Assembly: GCA_030583845.1 (NCBI GenBank)
Contig: CP129478.1
Coordinates: 407,175-471,174 of the forward strand
Source of the DNA: Candidatus Dojkabacteria bacterium
GTDB lineage: Bacteria > Patescibacteriota > Dojkabacteria > SC72 > JAHDCA01
Length of the DNA stretch: 64,000 nt
Direction: 5' to 3'
Part shown: piece after piece, positions 20,214-62,625 of the stretch
Layout: each line of letters begins with the position of its first letter
Position numbering within the stretch: position 1 is the first letter of the stretch
Notes under the pieces: model-generated
What the model saw: only the letters and a program-made list of their open reading frames with translations
The model's database searches: none
What the model was told of the DNA's origin: nothing
Program-made: the position numbers and the translations under genes

Positions 20214-20607
20214 ACTTTGTGTGAGCCTAATTATTTAAGATAAATAAAAAAAGCGTAGAAAAAGCTCCACGCCGAAAACGCTATCTCAAACTACTATCGG
20301 GTTGATGGGTCAATGCCACCATAATGAAGATGAACTTTTGGCCTAAATATAAGTACAATCGCTAAAAATCGAATGGATACTAGCACAGTACGCCACCGAT
20401 GTCAAACGGGCATTTTTAACAATACGATCGAGCCTCAAAGAGGTTCAGTAATAATAACAAATTCCGGCTCCACTAACAAGCTTTTTGACCATCCAAGTCT
20501 ATAAAATCTGAGCCACCTTAATCTTCACTTAATGAAATTATTAACTACAATATTGAGTCACCTTCCCAATCGCATGAAAGATCTGTACAATCAACTAAAT
20601 CACAAAA

Positions 20608-22891
20608 ATGGGAAGACGAAAAAAAGCGACATCGGAAATAACTATTCATAGTAAAGAAACCAGGATTATACTTGGTTTATTCCTCATACTTATAGCGCTT
20701 ACGCTTATCGCTGCACCGTTCAGCACAGAGGCTGTCTTCGAGCCGATTGTATTCTATCTTGGGGTACCATCAGTGGCCTGGGGAATCCTCATACTCCTCA
20801 TGGCAATCCGCGTCATCAAAGGCCCGAGCAAGTTTACAAACTGGAAAACCATTACAGGTACGCTTCTTATCGCTCTAATTCTCAACATCCTCTTCACATT
20901 TTGGATCCCCGAGGAGATATTAAGCAGCCAGACAGACTTCTCCAATGAAGGTGGCCAACTCGGATATATATTGCACACACAGCTAAATGCCATGGTAGGA
21001 GACTTCATCGAATTTGTACTTATTATTGTATTAATAATTGTAGCCTTCTCCCTCATCTCAGGTGTAAGCCTCGAACGGATCTCAAATAGTGTGGGCAACC
21101 TATTCGACAAGCTATTTGAAAGCCGCAATAAACTGAAGCTTCCAAAAGGTGAGGATGACGACGGAATCAGCATTGTAGATAGTATGTTCAAAGGCGGCGA
21201 CGACGATGAGGCTATAGATGAAGCAATTGAGCCAGAGATTGAAAATGGAGCCGAGCCGATCGCGAATATGAGGGCAAAAACCGAGCCAAATATGAGTGCC
21301 AACGTCGAGGCAGAGATCCGTGAAGCAACAGGCAAAGAGTTCGTAGAATCACCAAAGTCAAACAGCAAAGAAAGCAGTGAAGAGGAAAGCAGTACACTTA
21401 GCGAGCCACTATATCCAAACTGGAAATTCCCACCAGTAAACCTGCTCCAGAAGCCACAGGTCAGCCCGCAAGACCCAAACCTACACAAGCGCAACGCCAG
21501 CGTCATCGAGAAAACCTCTGCGCAGCTTCAATATTGAGTCACGTATCAGCAAAGTCACAATCGGCCCAACAGTCGTCCAGTACGCTCTAAGCATTACCGT
21601 AGGCACCAAGGTCGCAAAAGTGCGCAACCTCTCAAATGACATCGCATTGGCTCTAGCGACACCTGAGTCACAAATCCGCATCGAGGCTCCGATCCCTGGC
21701 ACCTCATTAATTGGTATCGAGATCCCCAACCCTACCCCGAATTTTGTATTCATCCGTGAGCTGGTCGAGAAGCTGAATGAAGAGCACGACAAATATAGAC
21801 TACCTATCATTCTTGGTAAGAATGTCGCTGGCCAACCAATCATCAAAGACCTCACAAGTCTCCCCCACCTCTTGGTCGCAGGCGCGACTGGTACCGGTAA
21901 ATCTGTAGGTATCAACTCGCTACTAACTGGTCTACTTATGACCAAGTCTCCTGATGAGCTAAAGCTTATTCTCGTCGACCCAAAGATGGTTGAGATGGCG
22001 CCTTATAATGGCATCCCTCACCTACTCACTCCGGTCATCACAGATATGGAGCTGGTAGTAAATGCGCTACAATGGACTGTCGAGGAGATGTTGAAGCGGT
22101 ATAGGGTATTGAAGCAGATCGGAGCCAGGAATATCACCGAGTACAACGACAAGGTTGGCGATCTAACAATGCCATACATAATAGTAGTAATCGATGAGAT
22201 GGCTGACCTTATGCTTACGACTGGAGTAGATGTAGAGTCAAAGATTGTACGACTAGCTCAGATGGCACGAGCAGTGGGTATTCACCTAATATTGGCAACC
22301 CAGAGACCTTCTGTAGATGTAATCACTGGCTTGATCAAGGCAAACGTGCCGGGTCGAATCGCATACAGCGTATCGACAGCTATCGACTCACGAGTAATCA
22401 TCGACCAGACTGGCGCAGAGACACTGATCGGCAAGGGAGATATGATGTTTAAATCACCTTCTACAGGCAGACCTATCCGTATGCAGGGTGCTTGGACTGA
22501 CACAGTCGACACCGAGGCGATCATCAGCTTTATCAAAGACCAGACGAAAGAGCTTAAGTATAGCGACGCAATCACCCAGCCGAAAGAAGAGAAGTCAGAA
22601 GGCGGAGGAGCTGCTTCGGGTCATTCAGATGACGCAATGTTCGCAGATGCACTCGAGGTAGTTGTAAATGCTCAAAAGGCATCGGCCTCCCTACTCCAGA
22701 GGAGATTGAGGATCGGTTATAACCGGGCTGCCAGATTGATTGATGAATTGCATGAGGCAGGAGCAATAGGCCCACAGGAGGGTAGTTCACCACGAAAAGT
22801 GCTAGTCTCCAGCAGTGATCAGATCTTAGGCGCAGGCAGCAGTGACGTTGATGATTTTGCAGACAACCAGGACGACAAGTCCGACTTCTAG
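20608..22891 (+). CDS. ftsK: DNA translocase FtsK/SpoIIIE (N-terminal membrane domain, linker, motor, gamma domain), with an apparent +1 frameshift near 21521-21529
   Basis: ORF1 (20608..21537) gives 4-TM and linker. The frame-2 reading from about 21440 gives ...FNIESRISKVTIGPTVVQYAL... (the FtsK alpha/beta start), then the Walker motor VAGATGTGKS and gamma domain LLQRRLRIGYNRAARLIDELHEAG. The junction KTSAQ(L)/FNIES matches the FtsK ETLAEFGIEA region after skipping 1 nt. Confidence 0.85.
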
Positions 22892-23007
22892 AGGTCATCA
22901 GACTCTCTACATTGAAATTTCTGCCCGATAGAGATTAATTCATCAAATGCAAATCTGCAAAATGATACAATCGCAAGGCCTGCATAGAATATTAGAATAG
23001 ATGAAAT

Positions 23008-24051
23008 ATGAAATTAAGAAAAAAGACCAAAATTAGAGAGCCGAAAAAACCGGCAGCGCCAATAAGCACTGCCAATATGCTCACCGCAGGCCAGGTGCTT
23101 AAATCGCGCCGTAAAGAGCTTCGATTAAGCATTGACCGCGTCTCCGCCGAGACCAAGATTCAGAAGCGATATATTGAGATCATCGAGGCCGATGATTATG
23201 ACCAGCTCGAGAGCACTGTATTCATCTCTGGATTCATTAAAATCTATGCCGAATACCTCTCTCTTAATGTAGATAAAGTGCTCGCCCTCTACAGACGAAA
23301 CAGCAGCACCAAGGCTGACCAGGCAAAGAAAGCAGCAAAAGAGGTCGAGACGCAAAGCCTGAAGGATTATCTCACCCCGCAGACATTAGTGCTGCTTCTG
23401 GTTGCCGCGACAATCGTTGGCTTGTTCAGCTATATCGGGGTGCAATTTTATAGATTCCAAAAAGAGCCATACCTGATAATCGCCTCCCCTACCGAGCTTA
23501 CATTTGAGACCACAGATGAGATCCTACTTATCAAAGGTCAAACAGAGAGTGGAACTATACTTACCGTAAATGAAGATACTGTACCTTTGGATGATCAGGA
23601 CAAATTCGAGTATGAGTACGATCTGCAAGAAGGCAACAACACCATCATCGTAAAAGCAGTTAGGAATAACAATAAGCGAAGCGAGACCCTCAAGGTGCTT
23701 GAGGTAAAATATATCACAGAGGAAGAGGCAGCACAGCAGGCAGAAGAAAACCCTCCACCCGAAGAGGCGCCACCACCAGCTACCGAGTACAAGCTGAAGG
23801 TCGAAGTGGTCGACGACGAGGCTTGGATCAAAATCGTGGTTGATGATACTCAGCAGTATGCCCAGATCCTGCCTCCTGGCTTTAGCGAAGAGTTCACTGT
23901 AAAATCCAGCTTCGAGGTGATCTCCGGCCGCCCGACCATTACCAATGTATATGTAAATGGTGAAGCGCGAGAGATGGTACTCGACTCTGAGTCGGGGACT
24001 GCCAAATTGAACTGCTCAATTAGTGGAGATACTTTATCTTGCCAAGACTAG
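23008..24051 (+). CDS. RodZ-like membrane protein (N-terminal XRE-type HTH, one TM, C-terminal domain)
   Basis: 347 aa. LTAGQVLKSRRKELRLSIDRVSAETKIQKRYIEIIE (HTH), then a TM helix LVLLLVAATIVGLFSYIGV, and a C-terminal beta-rich domain as in RodZ/DUF4115. Confidence 0.5.
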   Translation: MKLRKKTKIREPKKPAAPISTANMLTAGQVLKSRRKELRLSIDRVSAETKIQKRYIEIIEADDYDQLESTVFISGFIKIYAEYLSLNVDKVLALYRRNSSTKADQAKKAAKEVETQSLKDYLTPQTLVLLLVAATIVGLFSYIGVQFYRFQKEPYLIIASPTELTFETTDEILLIKGQTESGTILTVNEDTVPLDDQDKFEYEYDLQEGNNTIIVKAVRNNNKRSETLKVLEVKYITEEEAAQQAEENPPPEEAPPPATEYKLKVEVVDDEAWIKIVVDDTQQYAQILPPGFSEEFTVKSSFEVISGRPTITNVYVNGEAREMVLDSESGTAKLNCSISGDTLSCQD

Positions 24052-24072
24052 ATTAAGCGTAGATAAGAGTAG

Positions 24073-25839
24073 ATGGATAATCGAGATACAATAGAGCTGG
24101 TAAAAAGCAAAGCAGATATTGTCGCTGTCGTAGAGCGATACGTGAAATTAAGACAGATGGGGAAAAATTATGGAGCCCCCTGCCCTTTCCACCAAGAGAA
24201 AACCCCGTCTTTCATGGTCAGCCCCGATCTTCAGCATTACAAGTGCTTCGGCTGTGGCGAGTCTGGTGACGTCATCAGCTTTGTCCAGAAAATTGAGAAT
24301 ATAGAATTCTTCGAGGCGCTCCAGAAGTTGGCCAAGGAGGTCGGCGTAGAGATCACCACCCACCAGAAAAACAGCAAGTATGCCAAGCTCGAGGAGCTCA
24401 ACGAGATCGCTACACAGTTTTACCAACAGCAGCTTGAGTCAGTTAATGGCAAGAAGGCCAAAGAGTACTTCGTAAAGCGCGGGCTTGATCATAGCGAGGC
24501 AAAGAAATTTCAGGTTGGATATGCTTATGGGCGCGATACTTTGCTGGGGAAATTACGCGCGTCCAAATATAGCAATGCCGATCTGGCCGCATCGGGTCTG
24601 TTTACTGATAAAAGTGGGCGATTAAAAGACAGGTTTATCAATCGCCTAATGTTTCCAATCAAATCCTCTACCGGCAAGGTGATTGCATTCTCTGGGAGAC
24701 AGCTCCCGGGCGATGATTTCGGGCCAAAGTATCTCAACTCTCCAGAGACAGCGATATTCCATAAGCGGGAGACTGTTTTCGGGATATTTGAGAGCAAGAA
24801 CTATATGCGAAAAGAAGATCTATGCGTCATGGTTGAAGGGCAGATGGATGTGATCTCTGCTCATAAAATCGGGCTAAATTACTGCGTTGCCCCACTTGGG
24901 ACGGGGCTCACACTCCAGCAGCTCGAGCTGATATCGCGCTACACTAAAAATATTTTGTTCTTTTTTGATAATGATACCGCTGGGCACAAAGCTGTTGAGC
25001 GTGGATTTGAGCTTGCCTCCCCTCTTGGCCTCAACCTGTTTGCGATGATTGCACCGAAGCCATACAAGGATATCGACGAGTTTATTCAATCCGAGCCAGA
25101 GAAGGTTGTAAAGCTGGTCAAACCGAAGGTTGATGCATTCACATTCCTCATCTCGCAGCAGCTGAGCCGACTTGATACCACTGGACTGAAGGGACGCGAG
25201 GAGTTTATAAGCTACTGCGAAGGGCTGCTAACTTTTGTTACCGATAAGCGGAAAGGTGAATATTACAGGCAGAAAGTAAAGAAACTATCAGGAATCTCGG
25301 TCGATGGTAGTGCAGAGAATGTGAAGCCTGCAGATGATGCTCCACAGGCCGCCACAGGCAAAGTTGAGCAATCGGTACTCTCGCGCGAGGAGTATCTGGT
25401 CAGCCAAGCATTGGTGCAAAAGTTTGACGAATCATTCCGAAAGATGGACAAGAAATATTTCACCAAGCCGGCGCTTAAAGAGTTGATTGAACTGATACAA
25501 GGCTCATTGGAAGCCGATGCGGACCTGGATGTGAAAGCAATATATGAGTCTGATGAGACGCCAGCAGAGGTAGTCGCCGAGCTAGAGAGAATCTACTTCT
25601 CACCTGAGCTGGCGAGTGCGAGACTTGTCGACAAACAGGAGCTAAACAATATCTATCGCCTAGTCAGGATCGGATACTACGAGCGAGTGCGAAACCATTA
25701 CCGCAAGCAGCAGGCAATCGCAGAGGAGGCTGGTGACACCAATACAGCAGATCGATTTACTGATAAAATAATCCAGGTAACAAGTAATATTAGGGAGCTT
25801 GAGGAGTGGCAGAAGAATTCAACACCGAAGAAGAAGTAA
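24073..25839 (+). CDS. dnaG: DNA primase DnaG
   Basis: 588 aa. CHC2 zinc finger CPFHQEKTPSF...YKCFGCGESGD, TOPRIM domain VMVEGQMDVISAHKIG. Confidence 0.9.
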   Translation: MDNRDTIELVKSKADIVAVVERYVKLRQMGKNYGAPCPFHQEKTPSFMVSPDLQHYKCFGCGESGDVISFVQKIENIEFFEALQKLAKEVGVEITTHQKNSKYAKLEELNEIATQFYQQQLESVNGKKAKEYFVKRGLDHSEAKKFQVGYAYGRDTLLGKLRASKYSNADLAASGLFTDKSGRLKDRFINRLMFPIKSSTGKVIAFSGRQLPGDDFGPKYLNSPETAIFHKRETVFGIFESKNYMRKEDLCVMVEGQMDVISAHKIGLNYCVAPLGTGLTLQQLELISRYTKNILFFFDNDTAGHKAVERGFELASPLGLNLFAMIAPKPYKDIDEFIQSEPEKVVKLVKPKVDAFTFLISQQLSRLDTTGLKGREEFISYCEGLLTFVTDKRKGEYYRQKVKKLSGISVDGSAENVKPADDAPQAATGKVEQSVLSREEYLVSQALVQKFDESFRKMDKKYFTKPALKELIELIQGSLEADADLDVKAIYESDETPAEVVAELERIYFSPELASARLVDKQELNNIYRLVRIGYYERVRNHYRKQQAIAEEAGDTNTADRFTDKIIQVTSNIRELEEWQKNSTPKKK

Positions 25840-26828
25840 ACGGTCGACAGGGCGACGCTGTTATAGATGATGTTTCCGACTCTACAGACAGCAAGGCAGA
25901 TGTAGCAGAGTACGACAAGTACAATTACGACTATAAAGAGTATTGGCAAGGTCGCGAGTATGAGAATCTCGCAGAAGACTCAGCTCTATCGCGGCTTCTC
26001 AAGAAAGTCCGCGGCAAACGAATCGTAGACATCGGTGGCTCATATGGGCGACTGCTTCCGATCTACTATGACAAATTCGAGCAGCCAGTAATTCTCGACT
26101 ATTCATTAAATACTCTACTTAAATATGAGAAAGGTATCCTTGAAAAATACCCCAACACAAAGCTGGTCGCGGCAAACGTTTACCATCTGCCATTTCGGGA
26201 AAATTCTTTTGATGGCGCCCTGATGGTCAGAGTTCTGCACCACGTCAATGACCCAGAGATCTATTACGAGGAGCTCGCGGAAATAATGGCCGACAAGGGG
26301 ATTTATGTACAGGAATTCGCAAACAAGATTCACCTCAAGGCACGACTAAAGTGGATGTTGAAAGGGCAATTTAAAATGCTTGGCGAAGAGCCGTATGAGC
26401 AGCCCACACAGGAGAGCTTCGAAGGAAGCGATAAGGCAAAGAAAGATGGAGGCATTTTCATGAACTTTCATCCAAATCATATTAAGGAGATGCTGAGAGA
26501 TGTCGACTTCAAGATTGTCGGCAAAAGTAGCAGCTCATTTTTGCGTGTACCCAAGCTAAAGAAGATGTTACCTCTGAGCATGATGATGGGTCTAGAGAAG
26601 GCAGCACAGCTCATTATCGGAGGCACCAATATTGCTCCAAGTGTTTTCTACAAAGCACGAATGGAGAAAGAGGCAGAAAAGAACAATCTAGAGAAAAGTT
26701 TTAATGAAATCCTCGTATGTCCAGAATGCAAAGGAGAGTTGCAGTTTGAGCTTGACCAGGCTCGCTGCTCCAAATGCGGTATGGAGTACAAGAAGCATTC
26801 GACTGTTTGGGATTTTAGAGTAAGCTAA
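25806..26828 (+). CDS. class I SAM-dependent methyltransferase with C-terminal Trm112-like zinc ribbon
   Basis: 340 aa. IVDIGGSYGRL (motif I). C-terminal ILVCPECKGELQFELDQARCSKCGMEY. The first ATG overlaps the dnaG end by 34 nt, so the true start is uncertain. Confidence 0.55.
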   Translation: MAEEFNTEEEVNGRQGDAVIDDVSDSTDSKADVAEYDKYNYDYKEYWQGREYENLAEDSALSRLLKKVRGKRIVDIGGSYGRLLPIYYDKFEQPVILDYSLNTLLKYEKGILEKYPNTKLVAANVYHLPFRENSFDGALMVRVLHHVNDPEIYYEELAEIMADKGIYVQEFANKIHLKARLKWMLKGQFKMLGEEPYEQPTQESFEGSDKAKKDGGIFMNFHPNHIKEMLRDVDFKIVGKSSSSFLRVPKLKKMLPLSMMMGLEKAAQLIIGGTNIAPSVFYKARMEKEAEKNNLEKSFNEILVCPECKGELQFELDQARCSKCGMEYKKHSTVWDFRVS

Positions 26829-26835
26829 AGCCAAA

Positions 26836-27594
26836 ATGCAAAGCATTACACCCAATAAATCGCTCGGACAGAACTTTTTCACAAACGCATCGCTTGCCAG
26901 AAAGATTGTAGATATTGTAGTCGAGAGTGACCCAAGCCATATCATTGAGATCGGGCCCGGGCCAGGCACATTTACCAATCTGCTCGCCGAACGAGCCCAG
27001 GTGATTGCGATAGAGAAGGATCATCAATTTGAGATGGTGCTGAGTCAGATTGATAACTTAGAGGTGCTGTATCAAGATATCCTAGAGACTGATTTTCATG
27101 AAATTTTAATGAAATGGGAACTCGAGGCTGAGAAAGTTGTGATTTTTGGATCCCTACCCTACAACATCTCTAAACGGATTATCGCCAACAATTTAAGGTC
27201 TAGTCTAATACAAAACCAGTACTACATTATTCAGAAAGAGGTCGCTGAGAAATATATTGCGAATGCCCCACAAAATAATATCCTCTCTTTAACCTCAGAG
27301 GTGTACTCACAATGCAACAAACTCTTTGATATTAGCCCAGGCTCCTTCAACCCACCGCCAAAAGTCACCAGCAGCTTCATTAAATTTACATTAAACGCAA
27401 CAGGTGAAATTCATGAAAATGCCGAGGAGCTTTGCAAATTCATTAGCAGCTCATTCTCCCACCCGCGCAAAACATTAAACAACAACCTTAAAAACTATTC
27501 AGAAGAGATTCATGACAAAGAGCTACTACAGATGCGACCCTCTCAACTTACCCTCGACCAGTATGTAGAATTATTCAATCAGTTGAAAAGATAA
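26836..27594 (+). CDS. rsmA: 16S rRNA (adenine1518/1519-N6)-dimethyltransferase RsmA/KsgA
   Basis: 252 aa. SLGQNFFTNASLARKIVDIV...IIEIGPGPGTFT is the KsgA signature. Confidence 0.85.
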   Translation: MQSITPNKSLGQNFFTNASLARKIVDIVVESDPSHIIEIGPGPGTFTNLLAERAQVIAIEKDHQFEMVLSQIDNLEVLYQDILETDFHEILMKWELEAEKVVIFGSLPYNISKRIIANNLRSSLIQNQYYIIQKEVAEKYIANAPQNNILSLTSEVYSQCNKLFDISPGSFNPPPKVTSSFIKFTLNATGEIHENAEELCKFISSSFSHPRKTLNNNLKNYSEEIHDKELLQMRPSQLTLDQYVELFNQLKR

Positions 27595-27656
27595 TCCAGA
27601 CCGACTAAACTACCAGACAAGCAAACCTTTAAGAGATATTTGATATAATCGCCCAA

Positions 27657-28115
27657 ATGTTTAGGAAAGAAGAAGAACAACCGCAATACGACCTCGGACT
27701 TAAACAGCCCAAGACAAACGCACTCAGACAGTACCGCCAGAAGATTATGTTAAAGCTCAGATTCCTCGAGACCAAAGGATATCTGCGCAGTCCTTATCCA
27801 TGGTTCTTTATATTTCTCTCGATTGCTTTAATAGCTGTGCAGGTCTACTGGATATACTATGCCCTTCCGGAAATGCCTTCGCAGGTGCCAATCTACCTAA
27901 ATCAGCGAGATCTCGCAGAAAGACTTGCCCCAAAGATGCATATCTACATATTCCCAATCTTTTCTGGAATTATCTTTGTAGCTTCATTTATAGTAACCTC
28001 CAAGTTCTATTATCTTATCAAGATTTTATCTAACTACACTTTTGTCATAGCAATCCTCTCAATCACAATGCTAACGCTCGGCCTATTCCAGATAATCGCA
28101 TACTACAATGTATAA
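27657..28115 (+). CDS. hypothetical small membrane protein (3-4 TM)
   Basis: 152 aa, hydrophobic. 8-nt overlap with the downstream GT4 gene suggests co-transcription. Confidence 0.45.
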   Translation: MFRKEEEQPQYDLGLKQPKTNALRQYRQKIMLKLRFLETKGYLRSPYPWFFIFLSIALIAVQVYWIYYALPEMPSQVPIYLNQRDLAERLAPKMHIYIFPIFSGIIFVASFIVTSKFYYLIKILSNYTFVIAILSITMLTLGLFQIIAYYNV

Positions 28116-54732: not shown

Positions 54733-54752
54733 GTTGGCACTTAGGTTCACAC

Positions 54753-54766
54753 GGAGAGAAATGGAT
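54753..54766 (-). repeat. att-like direct repeat: copy of the tRNA-Ser 3' end (GGAGAGAAATGGAT on plus; 13/14 match)
   Basis: Reverse complement ATCCATTTCTCTCC matches the tRNA-Ser(GGA) T-arm 3' strand plus acceptor 3' strand. Followed by GGACGCTCGGTCG, which is shared with the copy at 55829. Confidence 0.5.
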
Positions 54767-54830
54767 GGACGCTCGGTCGATGCCCAACTATCGATTACTC
54801 TTAACAAATCTAGTGTGTAAAAAGGTTGGT

Positions 54831-55109: not shown

Positions 55110-55145
55110 TTTTGTATTATATACTGCTTATACACTTTATCCTAC

Positions 55146-55159
55146 GGAGAGAAAGGGAT
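55146..55159 (-). repeat. att-like direct repeat: exact 14-nt copy of the tRNA-Ser 3' end (GGAGAGAAAGGGAT on plus)
   Basis: Exact match to tRNA-Ser positions 55973-55986. Followed by a conserved block of about 105 nt (55160-55265) homologous to 55829-55937. Confidence 0.55.
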
Positions 55160-55379
55160 GTTTATGCGTGTCACTTCGACCCTCTCAATAAATCAGGGAG
55201 TTGAGCTGCTCCCTGATATACGTACCCCCGCTCGCTTCGCGAAGCAGAGGTTCTCACAATAATCTTCTTCATTGATCTCCAACCATCCAGAGGCTTTCGG
55301 AGATTAAATGCAAAACTACTCTTATAGTTAGTGCAAAAGATACAACAGTTCGTATAGCTCAAAGTAAGATTTTGATGCG

Positions 55380-55781
55380 TTACCCGAAATAACCCTTTTC
55401 ATATACCTTTTGAAAAAATTCCTCCATATTTTTACCTAGTTCAATAATTGCGTCGTATTCGAACATAAATGGAATAAGAATAACTTTCGATTGATTTTCT
55501 CTTAGATCGAAGGCTATAGCTTCACCTCCACCATTTGATCCTATTAAAAAGATTCCAGGAGTAAACTTTTCTACCTCATAATTGGCATTCATTTGCTTTA
55601 GATCTTCGACTTTGTACAGTATTAAATATTCCTCACCAATAAATCCTTCCCCACCATTATGTAGCTGTAGAAATGATAAATAATCAGAGGGTGTATTATC
55701 CGGCAAGTTTAGATCTAATAGGAGTTTTTTATCGACTCCTGGGTTGCCATTAAATTTTTTAAGATATTTCTCGTTGATCAT
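55380..55781 (-). CDS. SMI1/KNR4 (SUKH-1) family protein, putative polymorphic-toxin immunity protein
   Basis: 133 aa. LPDNTPSDYLSFLQLHNGGEGFIGEEYLILYKVEDL...FLIGSNGGGEAIAFDL is the SUKH/SMI1 hallmark. No toxin gene is adjacent. Confidence 0.6.
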   Translation of the reverse strand: MINEKYLKKFNGNPGVDKKLLLDLNLPDNTPSDYLSFLQLHNGGEGFIGEEYLILYKVEDLKQMNANYEVEKFTPGIFLIGSNGGGEAIAFDLRENQSKVILIPFMFEYDAIIELGKNMEEFFQKVYEKGYFG

Positions 55782-55814
55782 GTTTATAAATATTCATAAA
55801 TAATTTTTGAACTC

Positions 55815-55828
55815 GGAGAGAAAGGGAT
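55815..55828 (-). repeat. att-like direct repeat: exact 14-nt copy of the tRNA-Ser 3' end
   Basis: GGAGAGAAAGGGAT. The adjacent 55829-55937 block contains hairpins (CAGGGAG...CTCCCTG; CTTCGCGAAG palindrome) shared with 55160-55265. Confidence 0.55.
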
Positions 55829-55937
55829 GGACGCTCGGTCGCTTTGCTCCCTCTCTAGATATCAGGGAGTTAAACTGCTCCCTGATATACGTACCCCTGC
55901 TCGCTTCGCGAAGCAGAGGTTCTCACAATAATCTTCT

Positions 55938-55974
55938 CCGTTGACCTGCAACCCGATGGGTTACAGGTCAACGG
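55938..55974 (-). promoter_or_regulatory. 17-bp hairpin (CCGTTGACCTGCAACCC-GAT-GGGTTACAGGTCAACGG) abutting and overlapping the 3' end of tRNA-Ser
   Basis: Read directly. One G-U wobble. Could be a tRNA 3' processing or terminator structure, or an integrase arm site. Confidence 0.4.
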
Positions 55975-56059
55975 AGAGAAAGGGATTCGAACCCTTGGCA
56001 CAGTTTCCTGCGCGCACGCACTCCAAGCGTGTCCTTTCGACCACTCAGGCATCTCTCCT
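55972..56059 (-). tRNA. tRNA-Ser (anticodon GGA), type II with long variable arm, no encoded CCA
   Basis: Minus strand: GGAGAGA-UG-CCUG AGUGGUCGAAA GG-A-CACGC UUGGAGU GCGUG-CGCGCAGGAAACUGUGCC-AAGGG UUCGAAU CCCUU-UCUCUCC-G. All stems pair, G discriminator. Confidence 0.85.
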
Positions 56060-56192
56060 CTGCTTTCTTTTGGCTAATATGAGCCTCAGAAAGAGCATCA
56101 AGAGTATATCAAAAGTACTGTTTGGCTTAAAGAAGCTTGGATCATGATAATTGCAACTATTTGAAGAGATGCTTCTCAACCTTATCGAGGCT
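56060..56192. repeat. 133-bp segment upstream of tRNA-Ser, duplicated at 56828-56960 (about 93% identity)
   Basis: Aligned by eye, about 10 mismatches. Both copies lie directly 5' (in tRNA orientation) of a tRNA-Ser copy. Confidence 0.7.
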
Positions 56193-56297
56193 GCACAATA
56201 GTGCCATTGAATCATTAGAGAGCTTCGCAAGTTCCGATTGTATCAATAGAAAAAAGCCCAAGAAGATCTTGGGCCTAAGATCTATACCGTTTAGATA

Positions 56298-56594
56298 CTA
56301 CATCTTCGCAAGAATTTCTTGCTTCTTCTGTGTAAATTCTTCCTCTGTGAGGATTCCTTTATCTCTAAGATCTGCTAATTTCTGAAGCTCTGCTGCATAA
56401 TCAACTGCAGGAGCATCTGCCACTGGAGCGTCTGCTGCTGGCATTGGTGCTTGCTGCATCTGCGGATCTTGTGGTGCAGCCTGTGCCTGCTGCTGCGCCT
56501 GGTTACTTCCCTCGATATTCTTGCGGATTGCTCGGTTTGTTCGTGCACTGCTAACCGCCTGTGCAGTAACTGCTGCTCTTAATAATCTACCCAT
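56298..56594 (-). CDS. SHOCT-domain protein (Gln/Ala/Pro-rich linker, C-terminal SHOCT)
   Basis: 98 aa. C-terminal LQKLADLRDKGILTEEEFTQKKQEILAK matches the SHOCT motif. Confidence 0.45.
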   Translation of the reverse strand: MGRLLRAAVTAQAVSSARTNRAIRKNIEGSNQAQQQAQAAPQDPQMQQAPMPAADAPVADAPAVDYAAELQKLADLRDKGILTEEEFTQKKQEILAKM

Positions 56595-56665
56595 TATTGT
56601 GTGGTGTTAATTTATTATTACTGGATTATATCACGGCGGAGATGAAGGATTGGTTTTGGGGATTT

Positions 56666-56827
56666 GGAGAGAAAGGGATATCTACGTGTGCCACTTCGTG
56701 GCAACTTCGCTGTCCGTCATGCTTCCCACTCACTTCGCTCGCGGAGCATGTCCGCTCGAACCCTTGGCACAGTTTCCTGCGCGCACGCACTCCAAGCGTG
56801 TCCTTTCGACCACTCAGGCATCTCTCC
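56666..56827 (-). tRNA. second tRNA-Ser(GGA) copy interrupted by a 75-nt insertion inside the T-loop (between UUCGA and AUCCC); pseudo-tRNA or intron-containing
   Basis: 5' part 56827..56755 is identical to copy 1 through GGGUUCGA. Then the 75-nt insert (plus 56680-56754). Then AUCCCUUUCUCUCC (plus 56666-56679). Confidence 0.6.
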
Positions 56828-56960
56828 TTTGCTTTCTTTTAGCTCATTTGAGCCTTAGAAAGAGCATCAAGAGTATATCAAAAGTACTGTTTGGCTTAAA
56901 GAAGCTTGGATCGTGGTAATTGCGACTATTTGAAGAGATGCTTCTCAACCTTATCGAGGC
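56828..56960. repeat. second copy of the 133-bp tRNA-upstream segment
   Basis: See 56060-56192. Overlaps the last 11 codons of the ORF 56926..57213. Confidence 0.7.
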
Positions 56961-57213
56961 GAGCACTATTCCCATCAACCTGGGCTTGGGTTAGTGGCAG
57001 CTCTGCCATTACGTAACTGTGGATCTGCATTACAAGATCCTGTAGGCTTCCGAAGTTGACCTTGAAGTCTGCAAATGCAGTCTCAAGTTTATCAAATCTC
57101 TCTTCTAGTTCATCAAAACGAGCGTCAATACTTGCAAACTTTAAGTCCTGCGTTGTAAACCTTTTCTCCATCAAAGCATCAATTAATTGTAGGTCTTTCT
57201 TTGTAAGAGCCAT
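56926..57213 (-). CDS. hypothetical coiled-coil protein
   Basis: 95 aa. The C-terminal 11 codons lie inside the duplicated segment. Confidence 0.4.
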   Translation of the reverse strand: MALTKKDLQLIDALMEKRFTTQDLKFASIDARFDELEERFDKLETAFADFKVNFGSLQDLVMQIHSYVMAELPLTQAQVDGNSARLDKVEKHLFK

Positions 57214-57420
57214 ATCGCAATCAATATAAACTTAGTTGATTATATTCGATTATAAAAAGTAGATGTTAAAAATTTGTGAAATCTGGGAAATTTGTACTCC
57301 ATGTTAAAACATTCTCTCTCTACTCAAAACTACCCCCTTCATCCTCCCTACCAAGCGACTTTTGTGCGATAATATTAATGAAATCTTAATGAACTTAAAA
57401 TTTAGCTTTGCAGGAATTTA

Positions 57421-59463
57421 ATGAAAGGAATTCTTCTCAAGGAGTACAAACCCGCCCGAATGCTGTATAAGCTGTTTTTCGAGTTGATAGCAATCCCTAT
57501 TGTTGCGCTGTTTCTTCCCGGTGTGTCAATTGATAGCTATCTGCAGCTAGCCATTCTTATCACATTAACTTCTGCTGTCTTTGCACTGATTTGGCCAATC
57601 ATTGCGAAGTATCTTTTAACAATCCTTCTCTACTCCGCTGGCATCTTAAACCTCCTACTTAATACATTAATCATCTGGCTACTCGCCCAGTTATTCCCTG
57701 GCGTTCAAATTGAGACACTATGGAGTGCCTTTATGGTGAGTATCTTAATAATGGGTTTTCGTATGTTGGCCGACGCTATTTTAAATATAGATGAAGAGGG
57801 CTCGTTTTACCGTCTATACACCAAGCGTGTCGCCTATAAGAATAGCCCTATAAAAGAACAGCTTGAGTCGTCAAAAGAATTAGATGATGGGACAATTTTT
57901 ATAGAGATCGACGGATTGTCCGCCGATGTCCTTAAATTTGCTGTCAGAAATGGCTATATGCCAACTTTACAACAGCTGATGATGGAACAGGGCTATAAGA
58001 TTCGTGAATGGGTCTGCGAGTACGGTGCATCCACACCGGTATGCCAGGCAGGAATACTCCAAGGAAAGAATAAAAATCTACCAGCATTCAGGTGGTTCGA
58101 CCGATCCGAGCAGAAAGTGAAGACAGGAAACAATCCTCAGCACTCTGCAGAGGTATTAAAAGAGATATCGAATGGTAAAGGGCTGTTAGCTGATCATGGA
58201 ATTAGCATCGGTAATATTTTTACAGGTGACGCAGAAGAGAGTGTTGCAACATTTAGTACGCTTCTAAATAAGAAAGATCGAGGTCTAAATTATTTTTACT
58301 ACTATTTCCTAAATCCTGATAACTACTTAAGGTCGTTTGTACTTTTCTGGATTGATGTTCTCTCGGAGATTAAAGATCAGCTATATCTTCAGGCTTATAA
58401 CATTCAACCTCGAATCAGAAAACAGTGGACTATGCCATTCATACGAGGTTTTCTCTCTATCTTTATGAGGGATATGCTTACCAGCGTGCTTATTGGGAAG
58501 ATGTATGAAGGGATTAAAAATGTATATATCGTTTATGCTGGGTACGATTTTATTGCCCATGAAAACGGGTTGGAGAGAGGTGAGGCGATTAAGGCCTTGA
58601 CGCAGACCGATAGAAAGATCAGCAATATAATGAAAGCGGCACAAACGACCCCTAGAAAATATCGGTTTGTGTTTCTGTCGGATCATGGGCAAAGCCAGGG
58701 AGCAAGCTTTAAGCAGCGCTACGGCTACTCTATTGATAAGTATATTTCTGAGATTGTTGGTCATTCGGCAGGAATCGAGGCATTGGAGCTTTCAGAGCCT
58801 GAAGCTGTTGATCAGCTAAGCCTCATATTGACTGAACAGTCCTATGAAAGCGGTAAGATTCACAAGGCAATTGGGAAGCTTTTCAGGCAAAAAACAAGGC
58901 CACTACCATCAAATAAGAAAGTGAAAAAGGTGTTGAGTGATGGGTCAAGTAGCCGTGCTGACATAAATAAGATCGTATGCCTCTTCTCGGGCAACCAAGC
59001 CGAGCTCTACTTTAAAGGCAATAAAAAGCGAGTAACAGTAGAGGAGATTAATGAAAAATATCCTAAGCTTATAAACTTGCTGAGCAGCCACCCAGGCGTC
59101 GGTTTTATATCGGTAGTCAGCGAGAAAGATGGCCCGCTAGTGATTGGCAAAAAAGGTACAAGATACCTAGATTCCGACAAGCTTAAAGGCCAAGATCCAC
59201 TCCTAAACTTTGATAAATATGCTGTTGACCAGCTTAAGCAGGTAAATACTTACGATACAGCTGCGGACATTATTATTAACAGCACACTTTACAGAAACAC
59301 CGATGAAGTAGCAGCGTTTGAAGAGTTTATTAGCAGCCATGGTGGCATAGGTGGTGGTCAGACAAAGCCGTTCATCATGTTTCCAAAGCAGTTTGAGTAC
59401 CCAGCCCAGCCAGTTTACAGGTCAACTGAGCTTCACAAAGTTATGAAATCCTGGCTCGCTTAA
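57421..59463 (+). CDS. membrane-anchored alkaline-phosphatase-superfamily protein (type I phosphodiesterase / nucleotide pyrophosphatase-like)
   Basis: 680 aa. N-terminal polytopic segment (about 4 TM). IFIEIDGLSADVL...GASTPVCQAGILQG and VFLSDHGQSQG resemble AlkP-core metal-ligand motifs (DGL..., SDHG). Confidence 0.55.
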   Translation: MKGILLKEYKPARMLYKLFFELIAIPIVALFLPGVSIDSYLQLAILITLTSAVFALIWPIIAKYLLTILLYSAGILNLLLNTLIIWLLAQLFPGVQIETLWSAFMVSILIMGFRMLADAILNIDEEGSFYRLYTKRVAYKNSPIKEQLESSKELDDGTIFIEIDGLSADVLKFAVRNGYMPTLQQLMMEQGYKIREWVCEYGASTPVCQAGILQGKNKNLPAFRWFDRSEQKVKTGNNPQHSAEVLKEISNGKGLLADHGISIGNIFTGDAEESVATFSTLLNKKDRGLNYFYYYFLNPDNYLRSFVLFWIDVLSEIKDQLYLQAYNIQPRIRKQWTMPFIRGFLSIFMRDMLTSVLIGKMYEGIKNVYIVYAGYDFIAHENGLERGEAIKALTQTDRKISNIMKAAQTTPRKYRFVFLSDHGQSQGASFKQRYGYSIDKYISEIVGHSAGIEALELSEPEAVDQLSLILTEQSYESGKIHKAIGKLFRQKTRPLPSNKKVKKVLSDGSSSRADINKIVCLFSGNQAELYFKGNKKRVTVEEINEKYPKLINLLSSHPGVGFISVVSEKDGPLVIGKKGTRYLDSDKLKGQDPLLNFDKYAVDQLKQVNTYDTAADIIINSTLYRNTDEVAAFEEFISSHGGIGGGQTKPFIMFPKQFEYPAQPVYRSTELHKVMKSWLA

Positions 59464-60905
59464 GATTTCCTACTTATAGTTAGGTAAACAAGCGAAAGAT
59501 TCATGAAAAGAAATATTGTTATGCCCTGAGGTAGGGTTAAAAGATAATGATCTAGAAGACCGATTATTAATATTGATGAAATAATCGATACTGTGTAGTA
59601 GAAGTCTTTACTCCTCAACAGACTGTACCCCCAAAAGGCGATCATGAAAAGGATCGTAGCGACCCCGGCGAACAATCCATTCTCTAAGATCAAGAGCAAG
59701 AAGATGTTGTGAACAGGTTGGTTTAATGTAAATCCACCAGTCGTTTGAAGCTTAATCTTCTCGTAAATTTCAACCGATCTTCCAATTCCTGTGCCTACAA
59801 GCCAATTCTCTTTAATGCCCGAAATTGCTGCTTGAGAAAGCTTCAACCGATCTTCAAAGCTCTCGTCTTGTATATTCGATGGCGAGAGTCGTTGCATAAA
59901 CACAGGAATTCCTATTACAGCAAGGTTAACTTTCTTTTCATTAACTTTCTCTAATGTAAATTTCATTAACATTAGAAATGCAAAAACGGCAAATGCTAAA
60001 GCTGCTGAACGTGATAATGTGATAGCTATTCCGAGTGCGATTATAGAGTAAACAGCCACATTAAATATTAATGAAATATCAGCACGTTTAAACGGCCTAA
60101 AACTGCTCTGCCCAAACAGATAGGCTGCAAGCAGTAAATAACCAGCAAAAATATTAGGATGAGGGAAAGTGCCATAAGCTCTAAGAAAATCTTGCCCGCT
60201 ATAGCTCCAGAAGCTCACACCCATTATTCCAGTCATTAAATTTGATTCTCCAAGAAAGCTTAATCCCATATCTGCCCCTCTATTTATCTGTGCCAGCCCA
60301 AGTCCAACCTCGAACAGCAAAATCAGAAGTCCAAGCCAAACGAACAGATATTTAATGAAATATTCATTAACTTTTTTAAACTTCATGAATATTTCATCTT
60401 TATCAAACAGAGCAAGTCCGATAAGATTGACAGCCACTAAATAGCGTACTCCAGAAATAAAGGTTATCCATTCTGGGTGTAGAAGGTAGTGCACCAGTAG
60501 GTATCCAAGCGATATAACCACTAAAAAAACACTCCAACGGGATAAACTGCGTCCAAAATCCACGAGAACACCTATAAGTGCAAGCAAAAGAAAAATATCT
60601 AGAATTGATAAAGTCGGAATAAGGTAGTTACTAATTATTAAATTTGCATATGGGTCGTATTCGAAAATCCCTTGAGGTAGCTGATAGGTGATATTGAAGG
60701 GTAGAGCCAAGAATAGAGTTATCAGGCCAGCAAAAGCATAGCTTTTTCCCTTCCATACAATATATGCCCATCCTATAAGTGAAAATGCGACAATGGCTGC
60801 TCGCTCATAACTCTCCTTCATTAAAAAGATACAAAGCGTGAGACCAAGAGCTAAAACGACCCATACAAGATATCTATGAATTAATGAAATAGTTTTCATG
60901 AGCAC
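59460..60905 (-). CDS. O-antigen ligase / polymerase family membrane protein (Wzy_C-like)
   Basis: 481 aa, about 10-12 TM. GTFPHPNIFAGYLLLAAYLF and SRSAALAFAVFAFLML resemble the Wzy_C/WaaL periplasmic loop motifs. Confidence 0.55.
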   Translation of the reverse strand: MLMKTISLIHRYLVWVVLALGLTLCIFLMKESYERAAIVAFSLIGWAYIVWKGKSYAFAGLITLFLALPFNITYQLPQGIFEYDPYANLIISNYLIPTLSILDIFLLLALIGVLVDFGRSLSRWSVFLVVISLGYLLVHYLLHPEWITFISGVRYLVAVNLIGLALFDKDEIFMKFKKVNEYFIKYLFVWLGLLILLFEVGLGLAQINRGADMGLSFLGESNLMTGIMGVSFWSYSGQDFLRAYGTFPHPNIFAGYLLLAAYLFGQSSFRPFKRADISLIFNVAVYSIIALGIAITLSRSAALAFAVFAFLMLMKFTLEKVNEKKVNLAVIGIPVFMQRLSPSNIQDESFEDRLKLSQAAISGIKENWLVGTGIGRSVEIYEKIKLQTTGGFTLNQPVHNIFLLLILENGLFAGVATILFMIAFWGYSLLRSKDFYYTVSIISSILIIGLLDHYLLTLPQGITIFLFMNLSLVYLTISRKS

Positions 60906-61548: not shown

Positions 61549-61589
61549 AATTATTTTAATGAATATTAAATTAAAAATTTTTCATCTCT

Positions 61590-61656
61590 CAGGTACCTGT
61601 ATAAATTCTCTTTAAGTGACCTAAGGTCAATTCTCGATAATTTATACAAGTACCTG
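61590..61656. promoter_or_regulatory. 18-bp inverted repeat (CAGGTACCTGTATAAATT ... AATTTATACAAGTACCTG, 1 mismatch) with a 31-nt spacer in the yidC-jag intergenic region
   Basis: Read directly. Located between the yidC stop (61693) and the jag start (61548). Confidence 0.5.
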
Positions 61657-61692
61657 ATATGATTTCTAGGGCAGAAGGCACAACATCCAACT

Positions 61693-62625
61693 TTACTCTT
61701 TACTACTTGCTTTCTTGGCGGGACGAACTCTGCTCACAATCTTTTTCATAACTTCAATGCTCTTATCTTTATCCACCACTATATACTGCACAAACATCAT
61801 TAATGATTGTACCAACCAGTATAATCCAAGCACCGCTGGTGCACTTAATGAAATCCACACAGTAAGAAGTGGGAATATCAGATTCATTGACTTCATCATC
61901 TGAGCCTGCATCTCTTGTGGATCCATAGGCTCATTCTTGTTACCCTTTTTCTCCGCTACGGCAGGCTTTTTAGCATTCTGGATCGACGACATAAATTTGG
62001 TGCTAAACCACTGAGCAATACCAACTGCTACACCTAGCAACAGGTATGGAATCGATTGAAGTGAGAAATACCCAACCTCTTTAGCCAAGGTTGTGTACTG
62101 AGTCGAAAGGTCAAGGAAAAGGAATTGTGTATTAATCTTTATATCACCACTGCCAAATACAAAATTCTCTACCCAAGGGTAAATTCCATCAGTATTACCA
62201 TCTGTCACAGCTCGAATCACTCCAATCATCGCTGCCAGAACTACAAATTGTGGAAGCATCGAGCCAAGACAACCAACAGGATTGTAACCAACCTCGCGAT
62301 AAAGCTTCATCTGCTCCTGACTTAGCTTCTGCTGATTATGCTTATACTGCTCCTGAAGCTTTTTCAGGCGTGGCTGCATCTCGGACATCTTGCTGGTCAT
62401 CTCCATCTGTTTCTTCGTTGACGGGATAAGGGCCACCCTTACAATTACAGCAACAGCAATAACAGCCAACCCGAGGTTATCACCCAAAACAGCGTAAAAC
62501 AGGAGCATTACGTTCAGGAACGGGCCGATTATTAATGTATGCCAAGCCGTGCTTAAAAACTCTATCATTAAAATTTCATTAATCGTTAAATATCCGACTA
62601 TGATACGCGCACCCGATATTCTCAA
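61693..62625 (-). CDS. yidC: membrane protein insertase YidC
   Basis: 310 aa. PFLNVMLLFYAV...AVIAVAVIVRVALIPSTKKQMEMTSKMSEMQPRLKKLQEQYK is the YidC core. Confidence 0.9.
   Translation of the reverse strand: MRISGARIIVGYLTINEILMIEFLSTAWHTLIIGPFLNVMLLFYAVLGDNLGLAVIAVAVIVRVALIPSTKKQMEMTSKMSEMQPRLKKLQEQYKHNQQKLSQEQMKLYREVGYNPVGCLGSMLPQFVVLAAMIGVIRAVTDGNTDGIYPWVENFVFGSGDIKINTQFLFLDLSTQYTTLAKEVGYFSLQSIPYLLLGVAVGIAQWFSTKFMSSIQNAKKPAVAEKKGNKNEPMDPQEMQAQMMKSMNLIFPLLTVWISLSAPAVLGLYWLVQSLMMFVQYIVVDKDKSIEVMKKIVSRVRPAKKASSKE

Follow-up and report, generated by a model that had tools for sequence, protein, structure and literature searches.

A hyper-abundant octamer family, TTMATGAA, as a candidate lineage-specific genomic tag in Candidatus Dojkabacteria

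The closest described systems to the motif reported here are the DUS of the Neisseriaceae (GCCGTCTGAA and its dialects), for which the receptor is the minor pilin ComP, and the USS of the Pasteurellaceae (AAGTGCGGT/ACAAGCGGT); both DUS and USS are family-wide. A third is the cyanobacterial octamer HIP1 (GCGATCGC), which, according to a recent preprint (10.1101/2024.09.10.611283), makes natural transformation more efficient. Tags of this sort are without an earlier report in the bacterial group to which Dojkabacteria belong. We analyzed a window of 64 kb (the whole stretch examined, out of a 1.04-Mb genome) from Candidatus Dojkabacteria, a CPR bacterium. The best explanation of the results is that TTMATGAA acts as a lineage-specific genomic tag with TTAATGAAAT as its extended form, and its function here is putative.

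The hyper-abundance of the 10-mer TTAATGAAAT in the window is real. A first-pass annotation had called it over-represented, with fewer than one copy expected, and this was borne out: there are 17 exact copies where 0.3-0.4 are predicted (0.43 by 100 dinucleotide shuffles, maximum 2; 0.32 by a third-order Markov model), an enrichment of ~50-fold. The exact copies it had located are all correctly placed, and one more, at 39793 on the minus strand, had been missed. The core is the 8-mer TTAATGAA, with 33 copies in the window against 3.8 expected, or ~9 times chance. Among the 24 one-mismatch neighbors of this core only the palindrome TTCATGAA is enriched (8 sites in the window vs ~1.2 expected); the rest are at background, TTAATTAA included, and the neighbor counts in the window show neither enrichment nor depletion (66 observed vs 76 expected; transitions, 20 vs 24). 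Together, TTAATGAA and TTCATGAA make up TTMATGAA, a core family with 41 sites altogether and a density of 0.64/kb; that of the 10-mer is 0.27/kb. The core is quasi-palindromic, with TTCATGAA as its perfect palindrome form, and it is sharply specific, with a single two-fold degenerate position. An extended consensus is present as a preference for A and T at positions 9 and 10 after the core, and TTAATGAAAT is the commonest extended form; the flanks of the copies are otherwise unrelated, with nothing conserved or shared between sites and no detectable AT-rich phased flanks. The first-pass annotation counted at least eight one-off variants. Copies of the 10-mer with a single mismatch are scarcely above expectation (11 vs ~7.6; shuffles give 8.0 for at most one mismatch), and three of the examples named, 2060, 27377 and 61556, each differ from the 10-mer at two positions and have just the 8-mer core in common with it.

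The sites fall in genes and spacers along the window. Toward the left end, a palindrome lies in groEL (1858-1865), a core between groES and groEL (2060-2067, +), a core in gene 2503-3288 (2631-2638, +), an exact 10-mer between rpoB and ftsK (20529-20538, +) and a core in a RodZ-like gene (23233-23240, -). A gene previously labeled GT2, which in fact encodes a class-I SAM methyltransferase, contains a core (26102-26109, -), a palindrome (26457-26464) and an exact copy (26701-26710, +) that is in sense and reads FNEI. In rsmA, a palindrome (27095-27102) sits 11 bp ahead of an exact sense copy that reads LMK (27106-27115, +), and a core (27376-27383, -) and a second palindrome (27410-27417) follow; the exact sense copy in the Glycos_transf_4 gene (28430-28439, +) again reads FNEI. 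A palindrome occurs in the PilO-like gene (35990-35997), and an intergenic exact copy (38398-38407, +) lies upstream of the minus-strand gene 37455-38390, 8 nt from where it starts. The metS gene carries an antisense exact copy over the peptide GNFINR (39793-39802, -), conserved in the related loci L021 and L013, and a core (39895-39902, +) conserved in L021. In valS, two exact copies (41411-41420, -, sense; 41424-41433, +, antisense) form an inverted dyad with cores 11 bp apart, flanked by a core at 41183-41190 (-) and by another at 41459-41466 (-) that is conserved in L021; upstream of valS there is an intergenic palindrome (43690-43697). Exact copies also lie after the RNase J gene (48897-48906, -, intergenic) and antisense in a 548-aa gene of unknown function (49876-49885, -). 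Farther right, an intergenic exact copy (57375-57384, +) forms a direct dyad with an intergenic core 11 bp past it (57386-57393, +), a core (57418-57425, +) overlaps the start codon, ATG, of gene 57421-59463, and a core lies in the holin/phosphodiesterase gene (59048-59055, +). The Wzy_C gene has palindromes at 59500-59507 and 60382-60389, cores at 59937-59944, 60363-60370 and 60817-60824 (all -), and exact copies at 59960-59969 (-, sense) and at 60068-60077, 60352-60361 and 60881-60890 (all + and antisense), with 60352 forming a dyad with the core 11 bp past it. Finally, there is a core immediately upstream of the jag/khpB start (61556-61563, +), two exact copies in yidC (61845-61854, +, antisense; 62573-62582, -, sense) and an intergenic core between yidC and yidD (62788-62795, +).

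This distribution is strongly clumped (variance/mean 3.8). Nine sites fall in the single 1.4-kb Wzy gene, several stretches of 7-17 kb contain none, clusters are 9-25 kb apart, and genes appear either saturated with the motif or empty. In both the window and the related locus L146, the rpoB, rpoC, dnaK and ribosomal-protein genes have zero sites; enrichment in rpoBC and dnaK is nil (2/20 opportunities vs 29/66, P=0.007). Poorly conserved genes are also favored by USS and DUS (PMC2817400). Four pairs of sites have an exact 11-bp center-to-center spacing (P ~0.0015) and occur in all three relative orientations, direct, convergent and divergent, a pattern suggestive of a DNA-binding protein that binds cooperatively; sites in L021 are spaced by 11, 21 and 42 bp. 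Of two close inverted pairs described earlier, 41411/41424 is a true dyad, and 60352/60362 is a perfect 10-mer beside a 9-of-10 copy. No inverted pair in the window is located in a predicted terminator, whereas >90% of inverted DUS and USS pairs are in terminators (preprint 10.1101/2025.10.24.684340).

Several lines of evidence show that the signal lies at the DNA level. The two strands are used about equally (TTAATGAA, 18:15, P=0.73), as are sense and antisense orientations within genes (13:11), and all four stop-free frames are occupied; because the motif contains TAA or TGA, the third phase is closed on each strand. Where the earlier annotation spoke of all three coding phases, the copies use two of the three per strand. 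Its view that codon bias is an unlikely cause is upheld by synonymous codon shuffling within genes, which leaves 7.9 +/- 2.5 in-gene sites where 31 are observed. This protein-preserving baseline is ~2 times the value given by the order-3 Markov model, which means that peptides compatible with the motif are also enriched, ~2-fold, as Findlay & Redfield found for USS and DUS (PMC2817400). Sites arise via synonymous codon choice and tolerated amino-acid changes. In the window 37% of core-capable peptide positions carry the core, and the share is similar in L021 (36%) and L013 (44%); in L023 it is 0/29, and across 10 further loci from Dojkabacteria it ranges over 0-12%. For example, the valS peptides RLNEII, IINETF and FFINKI are identical in L013 and L023, and the motif is spelled in L013 only.

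Enrichment in relatives, raised in the first-pass annotation as a check, is present in two of them, the L021-like lineage and L013; their sisters L144, L023 and L022, which encode the same peptides by other codons, lack it. Observed cores exceed expectation in L021 (10 vs 1.1), L146 (5 vs 1.1), L149 (4 vs 0.9) and L013 (17 vs 2.4), and the core is the top 8-mer in both L013 and L021. That independent loci of two other lineages are enriched speaks against a repeat family of purely local extent. The sisters lacking enrichment diverge only ~16-25% in ValS (L023 and L013 share 84% ValS identity), and this requires two gains or several losses. Turnover of individual sites is high: across ~35 kb aligned at ~74% identity, 5 are shared, 10 are relative-only and 9 are window-only. 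The window keeps 5/15 of the L021/L146 sites at 74% nucleotide identity vs 8.5% expected (P=0.006), and between strains all sites are retained, even in a segment of 87.7% identity. Recombination occurs, as the co-occurring strain L017 is a mosaic with respect to the window, with successive segments at 99.9, 98.6, 95.4 and 87.7% identity.

We favor, with a probability of roughly 0.4, the interpretation that TTMATGAA is a DUS/USS-like self tag that accumulates by biased DNA uptake and recombination. It is favored by the density, about equal strand use, occupation of all stop-free frames, turnover and sparing of conserved genes, and also by a ComF-family gene and PilN within the window together with the comEC-dependent natural transformation demonstrated experimentally in Saccharibacteria, another CPR phylum (PMC10633639). 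As context only, the ComF-family (ComFC-like) protein, with a zinc ribbon and PRTase (5262-6053, +), matches TIGR00201 at E=4.6e-25, below the curated cut-off, and PilN (36462-37082, -) passes its Pfam threshold (25.5 bits vs a gathering score of 22.8); the PilO also named earlier is a weak, below-threshold match (35854-36462, -, E=0.007). The 64-kb window contains no prepilin-type signal motif. In the mechanism that we infer, which links the motif to uptake, a receptor and drive, a putative type IV pilus or Com component would preferentially bind or process core-bearing DNA, and copy-rich fragments would more frequently enter cells and recombine. Mutations that create copies would then be over-transmitted in the population (molecular drive), and copies would build up where protein function tolerates them, at synonymous codons and benign amino-acid changes, and not in highly expressed genes under strong constraint. 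The uptake hypothesis, first raised by the earlier annotation, is consistent with every test run and is partly supported by the strand, frame, turnover and gene-avoidance patterns. For DUS or USS, however, the strong clumping, the terminators free of inverted pairs, the 11-bp dyads in three orientations, the sister lineages lacking enrichment and the unenriched one-mismatch variants are atypical.

A nucleoid-protein or methylase site, the remaining alternative from the same annotation, is still a candidate. It is possible, though we lean against it, that the core is a HIP1-like structural octamer, the putative binding site of an abundant, lineage-specific and sequence-specific nucleoid-associated or chromosome-organizing protein, with clusters kept by selection along the chromosome. 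The quasi-palindromic core with its co-enriched perfect palindrome would suit such a protein, as would four dyads at one helical turn, the L021 spacings, the lack of sites in the most highly expressed genes, and the excess retention between lineages and full retention between strains; the cluster intervals recall the HIP1 periodicity of 10-90 kb (PMC5861425). Yet 19/24 sites are unshared between close lineages, which indicates that individual sites are dispensable, the relative L149 lacks the Wzy hot-spot, and hundreds of weak sites would all need to be under selection.

Less probable still is that the motif is a by-product of a horizontally acquired, sequence-specific modification or repair system turning near-cognate sequences into TTMATGAA, for example an orphan methyltransferase with mismatch correction of the very-short-patch (VSP) kind, or biased gene conversion directed by nicks. 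Known VSP-type effects are far below 9-fold, the neighbors (transitions included) are undepleted, and a genome-wide bias should hit rpoBC and dnaK equally, where enrichment is nil. The patchy phylogeny is what a mobile determinant would give and the very sharp specificity is of the kind usual for methyltransferase or endonuclease sites; orphan methyltransferases are linked to HIP1 abundance (PMC4390886), but the window encodes no DNA methyltransferase. We consider very improbable a polar guide of the Chi (RecBCD/AddAB) or KOPS/SRS (FtsK/SpoIIIE) type: the motif is an 8-mer over-represented in coding DNA and the window encodes an FtsK with a gamma domain, but the window is apparently one replichore (GC skew negative throughout; dnaA and dnaN lie ~7 kb beyond yidC in L149, placing the origin just past its right end), and the absence of strand bias effectively refutes such polarity. 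A trivial cause merits almost no credence: although the word is AT-rich in a 45% GC genome, contains TAATG and ATGAAA, both common at gene junctions, forms a start codon once (57418) and comes from a window with frameshifts in rpoB and ftsK that suggest some sequence errors, chance and composition are refuted by 0/100 shuffles with more than 2 copies, a codon or peptide artifact by the frames, strands and synonymous shuffling, mobile-element or MITE termini (another earlier suggestion) by the unrelated flanks, and an assembly artifact by the same sites in L016, L017 and L148, independent short-read assemblies from other samples.

How does the motif compare with known systems? Like the Chi and KOPS/AIMS octamers it is an over-represented 8-mer in coding DNA, but those are strongly leading-strand skewed. 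HIP1 resembles it as an exactly specific octamer that is present in great excess within ORFs, occupies several frames, has no peptide or RNA role and is placed unevenly or periodically, with some sites conserved between genomes and some lineages without the motif (PMC5861425, PMC4390886). In contrast to the main form here, HIP1 is a perfect GC-rich palindrome, is enriched 15-300-fold rather than ~9-fold (core) or ~50-fold (10-mer), and is tied to known orphan methyltransferases. Compared with USS, the Dojkabacteria motif is much more clumped, has no detectable AT-rich phased flanks and no enriched one-mismatch variants, and is patchy among lineages; like USS, it lies largely within genes (in H. 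influenzae, 65% of USS are in ORFs), uses tolerant reading frames with cognate peptides up ~2-fold, and favors genes and residues of low conservation (PMC2817400). Its AT-rich, quasi-palindromic sequence has no relation to that of DUS, 76% of its copies are inside ORFs vs ~35% for DUS (PMC2817400), no ComP-like gene is seen here, and any uptake bias is putative. With DUS it nonetheless shares a short, exact and sharply specific word that occurs in great excess on both strands, within genes as well as spacers, small lineage dialects (...AAAT preferred in the window, ...AAA[A/T] in L013), and a host with type IV pilus and Com genes.

The window contains 17 exact copies of the 10-mer flagged in the first-pass annotation, TTAATGAAAT (+ strand 11, − strand 6); shuffles of the window that preserve dinucleotides give an expectation of 0.43 and never more than 2, and the expectation under a third-order Markov model fitted to the window is 0.32. 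The 16 coordinates originally listed for it are all correct, and one copy had been overlooked (39793, − strand). In an unbiased k-mer survey of the window, the top-ranked 8-mer is TTAATGAA, with 33 sites versus 3.8 expected (P about 4e-20). Among its 24 single-base neighbours the palindrome TTCATGAA is the sole enriched one (8 sites versus about 1.2); the remaining 23 sum to 66 observed versus 76 expected, and TTAATTAA shows no enrichment in this count. Because only these two forms are enriched, the motif is TTMATGAA, with 41 sites in all; this core, and not the 10-mer, is the true unit. The base after the core is mostly A at position 9 (21/33) and mostly T at position 10 (20/33). One-mismatch variants of the 10-mer, earlier taken as additional signal, number 11, not far from the roughly 7.6 that chance would give. 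Searches with ValS (WKZ31519.1), RpoC and YidC place the window in an uncultivated CPR bacterium, Candidatus Dojkabacteria. The sequence read comprised the 64 kb and about 4 kb of flanks of a 1.04-Mb genome; the flanks were supplied by overlapping short Logan contigs recovered through exact-protein look-ups, L016 adding 3.1 kb to the left end and L148 1.1 kb to the right. The same sites recur in short-read assemblies made independently from separate sequencing runs (L016, which is 100% identical to the window across 12 kb, L017 and L148), and this rules out an assembly artefact. Samples containing the strain are SRR24881069, DRR779145 and DRR779146.

To understand at what level the motif is specified, we considered its strand, reading frame and coding context. 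The core lies 18 times on the + strand and 15 times on the − strand (P=0.73). ORFs occupy about 89% of the window and contain 31 of the 41 TTMATGAA sites, the 10 outside representing a mild non-coding excess (P about 0.01); the in-gene sites comprise 13 sense, 11 antisense and 7 palindromic copies. The 13 intragenic 10-mers are spread over all four stop-free frames (LMK and NEI in sense, ISL and FI[NK] in antisense). The earlier statement that copies occupy all three coding phases thus holds in that several frames are used, but not in their number, as one frame per strand is closed by TAA or TGA inside the motif. Taken together, the use of four frames and the even sense:antisense and strand ratios exclude peptide, RNA and translational explanations, including a ‘hidden stop’ role. 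When synonymous codons were shuffled within each gene, preserving every protein and each gene’s codon usage, 7.9 ± 2.5 sites remained (maximum 18 in 500 shuffles) versus the 31 observed; the excess is therefore mostly a choice between synonymous spellings. At roughly double what the Markov model predicts, this baseline shows that motif-compatible peptides are somewhat enriched too.

Enrichment of TTAATGAA is also found outside the window, in three loci of a related lineage and one of a second lineage. In the first there are 10 sites versus 1.1 expected in L021 (SRR25057012; ValS 86% identical to that of the window), 5 versus 1.1 in L146 (RpoC 87%) and 4 versus 0.9 in L149 (YidC 78%); in the second, L013 (JACKFR010000004.1; ValS MCB9790863.1, 69%) has 17 versus 2.4 (P about 1e-9). 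It is not enriched in L144 (JGI 3300037826), sister to the window and L021 (ValS 75% identical), in L023 (SRR23814903), sister to L013 (mutual ValS identity 84%), or in L022 (SRR27149815), L001 and ten further Dojkabacteria or CPR loci. An 8-mer survey of the loci lacking this enrichment found no comparable motif of their own, and gave no evidence for other ‘dialects’ in Dojkabacteria: the top 8-mers of 14 other loci reach only P 1e-5 to 1e-6, as multiple testing would produce. When each peptide position able to encode the core is counted as an opportunity, the core is spelled at 37% of opportunities in the window, 36% in L021 and 44% in L013, versus 0/29 in L023, 9% in L022, 12% in L144 and 0–11% in nine other loci; the 28% of L147 (31% GC) matches its AT-rich codon usage. 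The valS peptides RLNEII, IINETF and FFINKI are identical in L013 and L023, and only L013 spells the motif. The signal thus reflects a process acting on the DNA itself, active in certain lineages and inactive in their sisters, and a codon or peptide artefact is ruled out by the frame, shuffling and opportunity analyses alike. The ORFs specific to L013, inspected as candidate determinants, gave no Pfam matches.

Aligning the window with L021, L146 and L149 (about 35 kb at about 74% nucleotide identity) reveals 5 shared core sites, 10 found only in the relatives and 9 only in the window. The window thus retains 5/15 of the relatives’ sites versus 8.5% under neutrality (P=0.006), and 19/24 sites are lineage-specific; most core sites have arisen independently since the split. 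Between strains every site is retained, even within a segment of 87.7% identity. That segment belongs to L017 (DRR779146), a co-occurring strain that is mosaic relative to window positions 20376–39241: 98.6% identical at 20.4–29.6 kb, 99.9% at 29.9–35.2 kb, 95.4% at 35.5–37.5 kb and 87.7% at 38.0–39.2 kb, a pattern that indicates ongoing homologous recombination with diverged DNA.

Clumping of the core sites along the window is strong, with a variance/mean of 3.8 over 4-kb bins (P<1e-4). None falls between 2.7 and 20.5 kb, where murJ, dnaK, grpE, hrcA, ribosomal-protein genes, rpoC and rpoB lie; at average enrichment about 6 are expected from 4 to 20 kb (P about 0.002 for none), and the corresponding conserved gene block of L146 likewise has no core sites. 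Genes of this rpoBC/dnaK part use 2/20 opportunities versus 29/66 elsewhere (Fisher P=0.007). Near saturation are the Wzy_C gene (9/12), a methyltransferase gene (3/3), rsmA (4/6) and valS (4/7); the genes for RNase J and sigma-70 and the C-terminal ftsK ORF (21620–22891) are empty, jointly 0/10. The Wzy hot-spot is missing from the diverged Wzy of L149. Beside the RNase J gene, at 48973–54580, is a gene trio whose order is kept across Dojkabacteria (L013, L022, L023), encoding a protein of about 520–550 aa without family match, an FtsA/PilM-like actin-fold protein and a 680–712-aa protein with a Baseplate_J-like domain; it is almost motif-free in both motif-rich lineages.

Spacing is also non-random: four core pairs (27095/27106, 41413/41424, 57375/57386 and 60352/60363) are separated by exactly 11 bp, in direct, convergent and divergent orientations (P about 0.0015). 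The inverted pairs 41413/41424 and 60352/60363 both lie within ORFs, and none of 10 predicted terminators at 48–64 kb of the window contains the motif. The variable C-terminal region of L021 valS (6759–6875) holds five cores in 117 bp, spaced by 35, 11, 21 and 42 bp, and the window has three of these cores as well; the spacings suggest that clustered sites may be helically phased.

Two genes are split in the window: rpoB into ORFs of 791 and 339 aa (16832–20213; intact at 1126 aa in L146) and ftsK into ORFs of 309 and 423 aa (20608–22891; intact at 760 aa in L017). A single surplus C near 21515 causes the ftsK break (window GAAAACCTCT, L017 GAAAACTCT). These breaks are either assembly indel errors or genuine frameshifts. 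Small ORFs made of repeated modules occupy 54750–57000, which has no TTMATGAA site; here are 205-nt direct repeats (55987–56191 and 56756–56960, 96% identical) that partly duplicate a tRNA-Ser(GGA) (55972–56058, − strand), 105-nt repeats at 55180 and 55849, a hairpin with a 20-bp stem (55935–55977) and five copies of the 16-mer ACGGAGAGAAAGGGAT (54751, 55144, 55813, 55971 and 56664). Two related long hairpins, with 36–37-nt arms about 80% complementary and both containing GAGCTTGG...CCAAGCTCAA, directly follow the GT4 gene (29389–29477) and the sigma-70 gene (35202–35290). Upstream of the PEGA gene is a 144-nt tandem duplication (29548–29856, 99% identical). The most over-represented 6-mer is GCTTGG/CCAAGC (69 versus 39 expected), and both strands together carry five copies of AAGCTTGGCC. 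All this looks like a second repeat family unrelated to TTMATGAA.

We rank first, with a probability of about 0.4, the reading in which TTMATGAA is enriched through biased uptake and recombination: motif-bearing DNA would be preferentially taken up and then recombined, and copies would accumulate by molecular drive. Known uptake sequences roughly double their cognate peptides, sit in frames that follow protein tolerance and prefer poorly conserved genes and residues (Findlay & Redfield, PMC2817400), and Saccharibacteria have been shown to undergo Com-dependent natural transformation (PMC10633639). The ranking follows from the match to this pattern, from that precedent and from the ComF-family protein (5262–6053) and PilN encoded in the window. 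The annotated ComFC corresponds to that ComF-family gene; an ORF at 40352–41032 was ruled out for the role, as it has no family match. This 226-aa ORF (− strand, between metS and valS; no Pfam or NCBIfam matches) lies on a stretch of roughly 730 bp missing in the closest relative, L021, where the metS-valS gap is 28 bp. In Neisseriaceae the uptake sequence is recognised by a minor pilin, ComP; no reading frame in the 64 kb contains the prepilin motif G|FTLxE.

The clumping, the 11-bp dyads, the missing terminator pairs, the lack of enriched one-off variants and the patchy phylogeny fit uptake poorly and are nearer to HIP1, the cyanobacterial octamer whose conserved, periodically placed sites led to a nucleoid-structure hypothesis (PMC5861425). 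A HIP1-like structural DNA-binding site is accordingly a live rival, if an unlikely one. Less likely again, and also still live, is a by-product of a modification or repair system. HIP1 has been tied to orphan methyltransferases (PMC4390886), and a recent report has its methylated form increasing the efficiency of transformation (10.1101/2024.09.10.611283). No DNA methyltransferase domain is present among the proteins of the 64-kb window.

Polar guide octamers such as Chi and KOPS are strongly skewed to the leading strand. GC skew is negative along the entire window and, in L149, dnaA and dnaN are located some 7 kb past yidC, so the window is probably on a single replichore adjoining the origin; the 18:15 strand ratio there excludes a motif of this type. 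The jag/khpB-yidC spacer, which we infer to be close to the origin, carries a near-perfect 34-nt inverted repeat (61589–61657, 82% complementary, 1-nt loop). A larger repeat, including the MITE termini once proposed, or REP would be conserved beyond the core and lie mostly between genes; it is ruled out, as aligned 50-nt contexts show no flank conservation (at most 0.5 bit at each position outside 1–10) and 31/41 sites lie in frame-intact ORFs. When viral contigs were searched for three cores within 30 nt, all matches were noise from AT-rich giant viruses and tandem repeats, and the 23-nt palindrome ATTTCATTAANNNTTAATGAAAT gave 79 AT-rich chance matches in metagenome contigs, none encoding ValS and none motif-enriched; such short AT-rich patterns are useless for scanning public collections.

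The biased-uptake reading has implications for the CPR/Patescibacteria, a very large and almost uncultivated part of bacterial diversity in which pilus and Com genes are nearly universal. To our knowledge, natural transformation in CPR has so far been shown in Saccharibacteria alone, and specific uptake sequences are established solely in Neisseriaceae and Pasteurellaceae, with HIP1 a possible third case. No publication connects uptake sequences with CPR, and the 10-mer appears in the literature solely in primers or other incidental strings. We tentatively propose, with less confidence than the enrichment mechanism itself, that TTMATGAA(AT) could be the first uptake- or transformation-enhancing ‘self’ sequence beyond Proteobacteria and Cyanobacteria: a species-level CPR tag that a putative receptor would recognise as phased 11-bp dyads, gained or lost among Dojkabacteria over short phylogenetic distances. 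If so, these ultra-small symbionts would discriminate between their own and foreign DNA, with recombination inside the species, and the motif, appended to transforming DNA, would be a genetic tool. Motif-rich lineages and their motif-free sisters form a natural experiment in which to find the receptor or other determinant and to follow the rise and decay of tags. Even if uptake is not involved, an octamer this sharply specified, altering which codons one lineage uses but not those of its sister, points to an undescribed sequence-specific DNA system.

Two classes of short word are known to be non-polar and hyper-abundant and to spread into coding DNA: the uptake sequences (DUS of Neisseriaceae, USS of Pasteurellaceae) and HIP1. 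By sequence TTMATGAA falls outside all of these families. DUS is GCCGTCTGAA or dialects keeping a CTG core, and USS combines a 9-nt core (AAGTGCGGT or ACAAGCGGT) and AT-rich flanks in helical phase; the window core is unlike either. HIP1 is a perfectly palindromic octamer, GCGATCGC, whereas the main form here, TTAATGAA, is non-palindromic and the palindrome TTCATGAA a minor co-enriched form. Compared with the conserved, periodic HIP1 sites, those of the window are retained above the neutral level (5/15 versus 8.5%), mostly lineage-specific (19/24) and clumped (variance/mean 3.8). DUS inverted pairs are frequent in transcription terminators (10.1101/2025.10.24.684340), whereas the window’s pairs lie in ORFs and the motif is in 0/10 of the terminators predicted at 48–64 kb. 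DUS and USS reach about 1 per kb genome-wide on both strands; core density in the window is 0.64 per kb, 18:15 and clumped, over 64 kb of the 1.04-Mb genome. In their coding context the window copies resemble DUS and USS, with tolerant frames, poorly conserved genes and raised cognate peptides.
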